From: Clostridium sp. CAG:567
GTDB lineage: Bacteria; Bacillota; Clostridia; TANB77; CAG-508
Direction: 5' to 3'
Length of the DNA stretch: 64,000 bases
Assembly: GCA_000437855.1 (NCBI GenBank)
Contig: FR902206.1
Coordinates: forward strand, 5,080-69,079
Below are positions 58,550-58,936 of this stretch, piece after piece. The translations under genes were made by a program, and so were the position numbers. Positions within the stretch are counted from its first letter, which is position 1; each line of letters opens with the position of its first letter. The notes under the pieces are model-generated. The model searched no databases and was not told the origin of the DNA. It saw only the letters and a program-made list of their open reading frames with translations.

Positions 58550-58936
58550 ATGAGATTTGAAACTAACAAAGAAAAGGGAAACTCTAGTTTAGGAATAGCA
58601 ATTGCATATTTTTCGACTACTGGATACACTGTGTCTATTCCACTTAATGATACACAAGACTATGATTTAGTTGTAGAAAAAGAAAGCAAGTTTTCTAGTA
58701 TACAAGTAAAATCTACAGGTTGCAAGACAAAGTATGGAAATTATCAAGTAGCATTGAAAAGCTGTGGTGGGACTAAAGGTACAACATATAAAACTATAAT
58801 AGACACAAATATAGATTTTGTGTTTATAGTAACAAGTGAGATGTCAATGTATTTAATACCTAAAAAAGAAATTAAAAATAAATCAACAATAAATTTGTGT
58901 AACAGCTATAATAAATATGAAATAAAAAAGAATTAG
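58550..58936 (+). CDS. group I intron-associated PD-(D/E)XK endonuclease family protein (I-Ssp6803I-like)
   Basis: 128 aa; GNSSLGIAIAYFSTTGYTVSIPLNDTQDYDLVVEKESKFSSIQVKS (D..D/E-x-K core); AGGAGAAGG RBS. It starts 68 nt after the intron-containing tRNA. Confidence 0.7.
   Translation: MRFETNKEKGNSSLGIAIAYFSTTGYTVSIPLNDTQDYDLVVEKESKFSSIQVKSTGCKTKYGNYQVALKSCGGTKGTTYKTIIDTNIDFVFIVTSEMSMYLIPKKEIKNKSTINLCNSYNKYEIKKN

Follow-up and report, generated by a model that had tools for sequence, protein, structure and literature searches.

We analysed a 64,000-nucleotide (nt) stretch of contig FR902206.1 of Clostridium sp. CAG:567, hereafter the window, in which a small gene of a PD-(D/E)XK homing-endonuclease family lies immediately downstream of a tRNA-Tyr gene split by an element with the features of a group I intron. 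All features of this arrangement are on the forward strand. The 5' exon of tRNA-Tyr(GTA) occupies 58175-58210 and ends in GACTGT, and the intron-less alleles of L030, L093 and L034 align to its last base (L-numbers are labels for comparison loci from other genomes, metagenomes and phages). The 221-nt intron, which has no open reading frame (ORF), follows at 58211-58431, and the 3' exon, beginning with AAATCTGT and ending in CCCACCA, at 58432-58481; an identical mature tRNA is found with and without the intron. When spliced, the anticodon region reads GCAGACTGT followed directly by AAATCTGT, as the sequence-only reading of this stretch had written it. Directly 3' of the tRNA, an AT-rich hairpin and a T run (AAAACAAG...CTTGTTTTT, 58482-58506) can be read from the sequence. 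This is possibly a weak terminator, with G-C pairs too few for a call by the terminator scan; at the same position, relatives carry a hairpin that differs in sequence. The ribosome-binding site AGGAGAAGG (58540-58548) precedes the ATG of a gene of 128 amino acids (aa) at 58550-58936, 68 nt after the end of tRNA-Tyr at 58481 and 118 nt after the 3' end of the intron. The earlier description of an ORF-less intron and a free-standing gene with its own ribosome-binding site was thus confirmed by the ORF list and the sequence. From comparison with relatives, the endonuclease cassette, i.e. spacer, ribosome-binding site and gene, probably extends over 58482-58940.

Assignment of the 221-nt element to the group I introns, with predicted self-splicing, is based on several observations. 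Rfam Intron_gpI (RF00028) matches positions 58207-58407 with 35.9 bits (E = 8.7e-8 for the 321 nt searched), which is below the gathering score of 50; when 21 intron variants are aligned, compensatory changes are seen for 30 of the 62 predicted pairs; and presence and absence of the intron are exact to the base between the window and L030 and L093. The U.G pair at the 5' splice site, formed by the final U of the 5' exon and a G in P1, is invariant in all 21 variants, and the terminal base of the intron is G. The insertion point falls between anticodon nucleotides 35 and 36. Neither an ORF nor an ORF remnant was found in any of 55 distinct tRNA-Tyr introns, whose lengths range from 198 to 248 nt. 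A shorter variant without the hairpin after P1 is present in L075 (201 nt) and L097 (198 nt), and some related introns begin with G instead of A. ARAGORN gave no call for the split tRNA-Tyr at 58175-58481, and even a permissive Rfam search misses the intron unless the searched stretch is short. Split tRNA genes of this kind, missed by ARAGORN and scoring below the Rfam gathering threshold, are likely to be under-annotated in these genomes. A preprint by Williams (2020) lists 21 types of intron-split tRNA.

The membership of the 128-aa protein in the I-Ssp6803I (PF11645) family, proposed by the sequence-only reading, is established by profile and sequence comparison. The match to PF11645 (PDDEXK_5) reaches 65.5 bits, where the cut-off is 26.1 (E = 6.8e-18), and spans positions 3-115 of the 138 in the profile; the sole match in the PDB is 2OST, the structure of I-Ssp6803I (E = 1.5e-4 with the single sequence in phmmer, 5.9e-6 with a profile). 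I-Ssp6803I is a homing endonuclease of the PD-(D/E)XK type that belongs to the group I intron of Synechocystis tRNA-fMet (PMC3384342; PMC3424549), and 2ost, PF11645 and ssp6803i are linked together in PMC3424549. The protein also matches phrog_5018, a PHROG of unknown function, at 1.5e-22. Of the motif strings pointed out earlier, DYDLVVEKE (residues 37-45) and IQVKS (residues 51-55) are both present; the motif as aligned to I-Ssp6803I is, however, D39...Q52-V53-K54, with glutamine at the middle position in both proteins and no D/E contributed from within VVEKE. The strings YDLV and QVKS align with the same strings in 2OST. No variation occurs at residues D34, D37, D39, Q52 and K54 among the 75 distinct homologous sequences aligned, eight of them from phages, and this alignment suggests a catalytic role for the D/D/D/Q/K core. 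The activity expected of the family is site-specific double-strand cleavage of a long pseudo-palindromic DNA target by a tetramer. An AlphaFold2 model built from a shallow, low-diversity alignment of 24 sequences (mean predicted local distance difference test score 45.9) was too poor for a fold search. Essentially all of 118 gene copies are intact, and the ratio of non-synonymous to synonymous substitution rates (dN/dS) of 0.08-0.36 indicates purifying selection. A protein search returned about 2,000 relatives, the best 120 of which all show identities of 68% or more and have lengths of 125-135 aa, with two exceptions annotated as 177 and 197 aa; where a source is named, as it is for a few of these best 120, it is uncultured Clostridia. 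A role in a defence system was considered and ruled out, PADLOC matching only its generic homing-endonuclease model 'HEase'.

The co-occurrence of the gene and the intron is real, strong and non-obligate. In a scan of GTDB with one genome per species, a pattern for the tRNA-Tyr 5' exon that finds alleles with or without the intron gave at least 119 loci; the pattern ended in CTGTA, so that introns starting with G were missed. Among the loci listed, in 103 species representatives with this tRNA-Tyr, the gene is present at 11 and absent at 9 of the intron-containing alleles, and is present at one and absent at about 82 of the intron-less ones (11/20 vs 1/83; Fisher's exact p = 9e-9, a value that overstates independence because the lineages are related). 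In a scan of metagenomes with the protein, 54 of the 57 gene copies located at a complete tRNA-Tyr adjoin the intron, and three adjoin an uninterrupted tRNA-Tyr. A single conserved block of tRNA-Met, intron-split tRNA-Tyr and the gene lies in surroundings that differ among relatives: in one of them genes for an AMP-binding enzyme and a 280-aa protein are located upstream and transglycosylase-domain and MFS genes downstream, in another TsaE precedes the block. In the tree of the 280-aa protein, the intron and the gene occupy two separated clades with lineages lacking both nested inside them, and loss of both together is seen in L096 and in the L030/L036/L093 group.

About ten metagenome copies of the gene have no intact tRNA nearby. 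In L166 and L193 only a 14-nt 3' fragment of tRNA-Tyr (ATCCCTGTCCACCA or ATCTCTGCCCACCA) precedes the hairpin and the gene, and in L152, L187, L188, L207 and L210 a degenerate tRNA-like 3' end stands before the same hairpin and gene (tRNA 3' remnants lie at about 2900-2950 in L193, about 1880-1900 in L166 and 2930-2950 in L187). In one of these tRNA-less types, the downstream DNA is 99.8% identical to that of a normal tRNA-Tyr locus. We considered these copies as independent insertion sites and dropped that interpretation, since the retained 3' fragments or degenerate ends mean that they are not separate sites and that something inserted at the 3' end of tRNA-Tyr. It looks, from the sequences, as if another element integrated there.

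Comparison of close relatives demonstrates that the endonuclease gene resides in a small intergenic cassette with sharp edges, which is present, absent or replaced between them. The cassette is carried by L001 and missing from L034, an empty site where 85 nt separate tRNA-Tyr from the transglycosylase-domain gene; L030 and L093 are further empty sites with the same flanking genes. Between L089 and L187, 17 nt are replaced by a gene segment of about 430 nt within 99.8% identical DNA, and the presence of the gene is patchy among close relatives, even within a species (L089 vs L183, L187). L009, on a 434-kb contig, and L049 belong to the same species: their introns are 100% identical and their flanks 93-100%, whereas their cassettes are only about 79% identical, identity being 100% up to the end of CCA and 51-83% from the following base to about 40 nt past the stop codon. 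The best reading is that of a cassette of about 460 bp starting right after the CCA end of tRNA-Tyr. A six-frame hmmsearch found no gene remnants at loci that contain the intron and lack the gene. Beyond the endonuclease gene the sequence is variable, with a PhdYeFM antitoxin-domain gene at 4466-4720 of L011 and a 71-aa ORF at 4518-4733 of L009; small insertions seem to favour the 3' flank of tRNA-Tyr in general.

The histories of the gene and the intron are partly decoupled. Pairwise identities of introns and genes are weakly correlated (Spearman 0.32). L171 and L174 have genes that are 99% identical, introns that are 87% identical and unrelated upstream DNA, whereas L171 and L183 have identical introns and genes only 74% identical. 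Furthermore, L070, L169, L185 and L191, counted as three or four lineages, carry an intact gene after an uninterrupted tRNA-Tyr; in L070 (a 94-kb contig) and in the independently assembled L185 and L191 the anticodon region, read directly, equals the spliced sequence of the window, while for L169 the uninterrupted tRNA is known from an ARAGORN call only. In the gene tree all four are nested in intron-associated clades. No inactivating substitutions of the core were found in the gene copies beside intron-less tRNAs, and the N-terminal variants E8D, N11R and G10R are either also present in relatives with the intron or confined to a single lineage. Genomes with an intact gene at an unchanged, uninterrupted tRNA-Tyr would cut themselves if the intron-less site were the enzyme's target. 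Finally, L185, L191, L171 and L174 share a tract of 96-100% identity from the T arm of tRNA-Tyr through the endonuclease gene and a Fe-hydrogenase gene. Its left end falls between the tRNA's variable arm and T arm, and it covers at least 1.5-3.4 kb where the contig permits (that of L191 stops about 130 nt past the endonuclease gene). Upstream, the four loci are unrelated or far more divergent (L185 vs L191, 72%), with three variable-arm sequences and differing intron state. This mosaic reflects either tRNA-anchored recombination or assembly chimerism. The sequence-only reading had proposed a split arrangement in which the free-standing endonuclease would mobilise the neighbouring intron, and had suggested a survey of relatives. 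The survey revealed the strong association described above, but also the intact gene without the intron in four loci; and the weak correlation and the L009/L049 pair argue against inheritance of intron and gene as a single unit, some of the decoupled pairs being possibly assembly chimeras. The mature tRNA-Tyr sequences are identical in all intron and gene states, and the exon co-conversion signature is therefore uninformative.

Relatives of the protein in phages occupy a similar niche. All 20 phage loci (L212-L231), with homologues 28-54% identical, have the homologue in a tRNA gene cluster or at most about 460 nt from one, and in 17 of them a tRNA gene lies within about 85 nt. They comprise 13 large IMG/VR phage contigs, each with the homologue at a tRNA gene cluster, and seven cultured phages: Escherichia SelmaRatti, Bacillus BCP12, Vibrio Chester, Mycobacterium Wilder, Acinetobacter CP14, Pseudomonas KoPa-4 and a Klebsiella K54 phage. 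Examples are the homologues at 1507-1878 of L225, 995-1342 of L231 and 983-1369 of L229. Rfam found introns in none of the six phage loci scanned. Wherever the record is annotated, the homologue is labelled as hypothetical or of unknown function. Tyr, Ser(GCT) and Leu are very common among the adjacent phage tRNAs, one of them lying within 85 nt in roughly 11 of 14 distinct contexts; these are the bacterial tRNAs with long variable arms. Our literature search found no paper on PF11645 homologues in tRNA gene clusters.

Based on these data, we tentatively favor the reading that the gene belongs to a working free-standing homing-endonuclease cassette anchored on tRNA-Tyr, for which the intron would be a tightly linked but non-required neighbour, tight linkage following from its position only about 120-340 bp upstream of the ATG. 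When DNA with the cassette meets a cassette-less tRNA-Tyr locus, the enzyme would cut in or beside the tRNA-Tyr gene, and repair would copy the cassette in, using the conserved tRNA as the left homology arm. The ORF-less intron would often be carried along or co-inherited, which may be called trans-homing in a broad sense, and the cassette could persist without it. Here we infer DNA cleavage, the position of the cut and mobility driven by the enzyme rather than by ordinary recombination.

Several observations weigh against this reading. I-Ssp6803I itself cuts at the intron insertion site of the tRNA anticodon loop (PMC3384342; PMC3424549). The intron is present in about 94% of gene-bearing alleles and in about 10% of gene-less ones, and a protective role of the intron explains this co-occurrence more directly than linkage does. 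The tRNA-Tyr exons are identical with and without the gene, so a cut site inside the tRNA needs another means of self-protection. The gene tree largely tracks host markers, and much of the inheritance is therefore vertical. Finally, most of the comparison data are short-read metagenome assemblies, possibly chimeric at the conserved tRNA sequence; L171, in particular, is covered 3.8x and stems from the sample that also yielded L188.

The closest competitor is strict collaborative homing, in which the enzyme would recognise and cut the uninterrupted DNA of the tRNA-Tyr anticodon stem-loop, where GCAGACTGT joins AAATCTGT, the intron would shield this site and repair would copy both the intron and the gene. 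We weighed it almost equally with intron-independent homing, the decoupled histories and the intron-less gene-bearing alleles slightly favoring the latter, and regard it as a serious, if rather unlikely, possibility. The counts in GTDB and in metagenomes are those expected from it; the joint losses in nested lineages, the target of the family founder (PMC3384342; PMC3424549) and the precedent of two phage systems (PMC3984707) also speak for it, and since the exons do not differ between alleles that have the gene and alleles that lack it, immunity would most obviously come from the intron. However, three or four lineages combine an intact gene under purifying selection with an uninterrupted and unchanged target, near-identical genes accompany different introns (L171/L174) and identical introns accompany genes 74-79% identical (L009/L049, L171/L183). 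Moreover, the insertion site is not where the tract shared by L185, L191, L171 and L174 begins, its start being to the right of the variable arm, the phage relatives lie beside uninterrupted tRNA genes, and the association itself may largely represent one ancestral acquisition with tight linkage in non-independent lineages.

A further alternative dispenses with homing altogether. The protein could be a domesticated nuclease, which for example cuts foreign DNA with tRNA arrays or takes part in recombination or maintenance of the tRNA locus, with the intron as an unrelated neighbour. Purifying selection with no pseudogenes in more than 100 copies would be unusual for a mostly vertical selfish gene, the divergence of the gene tracks that of flanking host genes, and no remnants of the gene are seen at loci with the intron but without the gene, all as domestication would have it. 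Against it stand the patchy distribution even within a species, the replacement of cassette alleles within a species, the lack of a conserved partner gene and the restriction of the PADLOC match to the generic model; also, we know of no cellular role for PF11645. We therefore consider domestication improbable. Even less probable is an inert passenger, i.e. a relic cassette with an idle enzyme that is moved or lost by ordinary homologous recombination at the conserved tRNA. tRNA genes are recombination anchors, and the sequence downstream of tRNA-Tyr is indeed variable, as seen from the genes next to the cassette in the window and in L011 and from the tRNA 3' fragments of L166 and L193, but dN/dS well below 1 and catalytic residues invariant over deep divergence imply continued selection on the protein. 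As for a decay intermediate, in which the gene was once inside the tRNA-Tyr intron and has moved out or is being lost, the intron-encoded family founder and the nine intron-containing GTDB loci without the gene are in its favor, but the sequence-only suggestion to this effect is very unlikely to hold given the ORF-less introns, the gene's own ribosome-binding site and separation from the intron by the 3' exon and the hairpin, and the free-standing distant relatives in phage tRNA clusters.

A promoter-like site, TTGACA-17 nt-TATACT (58012-58040, forward strand), found by a consensus scan upstream of the tRNA-Met/tRNA-Tyr pair, is the best in the region and agrees with the consensus at 11 of 12 positions, being a consensus match only. 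It is followed by tRNA-Met(CAT) at 58059-58135 on the same strand (ARAGORN; Rfam tRNA, 71.5 bits). Among the bacterial loci scanned with ARAGORN or aligned, the order of tRNA-Met and then tRNA-Tyr is kept in L001, L005, L009, L011, L012, L169, L185, L191, L070, L171 and L174. The gene of the 280-aa protein (57088-57930), which matches no Pfam or NCBIfam family, is found beside the tRNA pair in many relatives at 55-90% identity. Downstream, an XRE-type helix-turn-helix gene (58962-59222, reverse strand; HTH_3, 23.5 bits) and a gene for a Cys-rich, zinc-ribbon-like protein of 65 aa (59371-59568, forward strand) exist as had been noted. They form an insertion of about 660 bp (58940-59600) seen only in the window and its two closest relatives, L132 and L133; in L001, which lacks them, the endonuclease gene abuts the transglycosylase-domain gene. 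By this comparison they are a lineage-specific insertion outside the endonuclease and intron arrangement, and either gene as a partner of the endonuclease was ruled out. An integrated island or prophage was likewise rejected: no integrase is present, and the surrounding genes, for transglycosylase-domain, MFS and Fe-hydrogenase proteins, are of the housekeeping type.

Various aspects of the locus have counterparts in known systems. The window protein shares with I-Ssp6803I the family, the aligned D...QxK motif and a small size (128 aa vs 151 aa in the 2OST chain), as well as the association with a group I intron in the anticodon loop of a bacterial tRNA. In contrast to I-Ssp6803I, which is encoded within its intron, the gene described here is free-standing, 68 nt downstream of the tRNA; the tRNA is tRNA-Tyr, with insertion after anticodon position 35, the host belongs to the gut Clostridia and the link to the intron is non-obligate. 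Collaborative homing has been described for F-CphI and the psbA intron of cyanophage S-PM2 and for mobE/nrdA of Aeh1 (PMC3984707, PMC6083498). A free-standing endonuclease paired with an ORF-less intron is common to these systems and to ours, in which the two co-occur strongly. Our locus differs in its location on a bacterial chromosome, in the tRNA gene and in the endonuclease family. What defines collaborative homing is a target at the site of intron insertion, and intron-less gene-bearing alleles argue against it here. T4 MobE mobilizes the neighbouring defunct I-TevIII nrdB intron in trans (PMC2790892). It is a free-standing endonuclease that cuts near the intron-containing gene, so that the linked intron is co-converted without being the immunity determinant, and this matches the loose linkage observed here; however, MobE is an HNH enzyme in a phage protein-coding gene with mobility seen in crosses, whereas ours is deduced from sequence differences between genomes. 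The last parallel is T4 SegB, a GIY-YIG free-standing homing endonuclease of the T4 tRNA gene cluster (PMC2330249; PMC13096335) that drives preferential inheritance of the tRNA region. SegB is likewise a small free-standing gene at tRNA genes, the niche in which phage homologues of the window protein are found, but its fold is unrelated (GIY-YIG vs PD-(D/E)XK) and no intron is involved.

The PF11645 family was known before, as were homing endonucleases of the free-standing kind and homing in its collaborative or trans forms (PMC3984707, PMC2790892, PMC2330249). Three points are new: a member of PF11645 is free-standing on a bacterial chromosome next to a tRNA-Tyr intron that has no ORF; alleles of all four intron and gene states occur in nature; and the location in tRNA gene clusters is family-wide. 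To our knowledge, I-Ssp6803I, which is intron-encoded, is the only PD-(D/E)XK homing endonuclease characterized, and we know of only two phage systems in which a free-standing endonuclease has been shown to pair with an ORF-less intron. The locus and its approximately 100 relatives provide a bacterial, chromosomal, tRNA-based case from the I-Ssp6803I family. Since all four allele states exist in nature, the question of whether the intron acts as a shield is directly testable by cleavage assays. In addition, intron-split tRNA-Tyr genes of this kind escape routine tRNA and Rfam annotation.

The distribution of the family allows a wider and more speculative proposal, which we regard as attractive but doubtful: PF11645 may be a widespread and hitherto unrecognized family of free-standing endonucleases specialized on tRNA genes, in phage clusters and at bacterial tRNA loci and often beside tRNAs with long variable arms (Tyr, Ser and Leu), with the Clostridia locus in the middle of a pathway of intron birth. 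If so, the phage clusters, with an endonuclease beside an uninterrupted tRNA, would represent the first stage; the Clostridia locus, where the endonuclease and an ORF-less intron have converged on the same tRNA, the second; and I-Ssp6803I, with the endonuclease within the intron, the third, so that all stages would be found in one protein family. The Clostridia locus and its relatives also hint at an identity as tRNA-gene-directed endonucleases for the 'hypothetical proteins' in tRNA clusters of phages of E. coli, Bacillus, Vibrio, Klebsiella, Acinetobacter, Pseudomonas and Mycobacterium.

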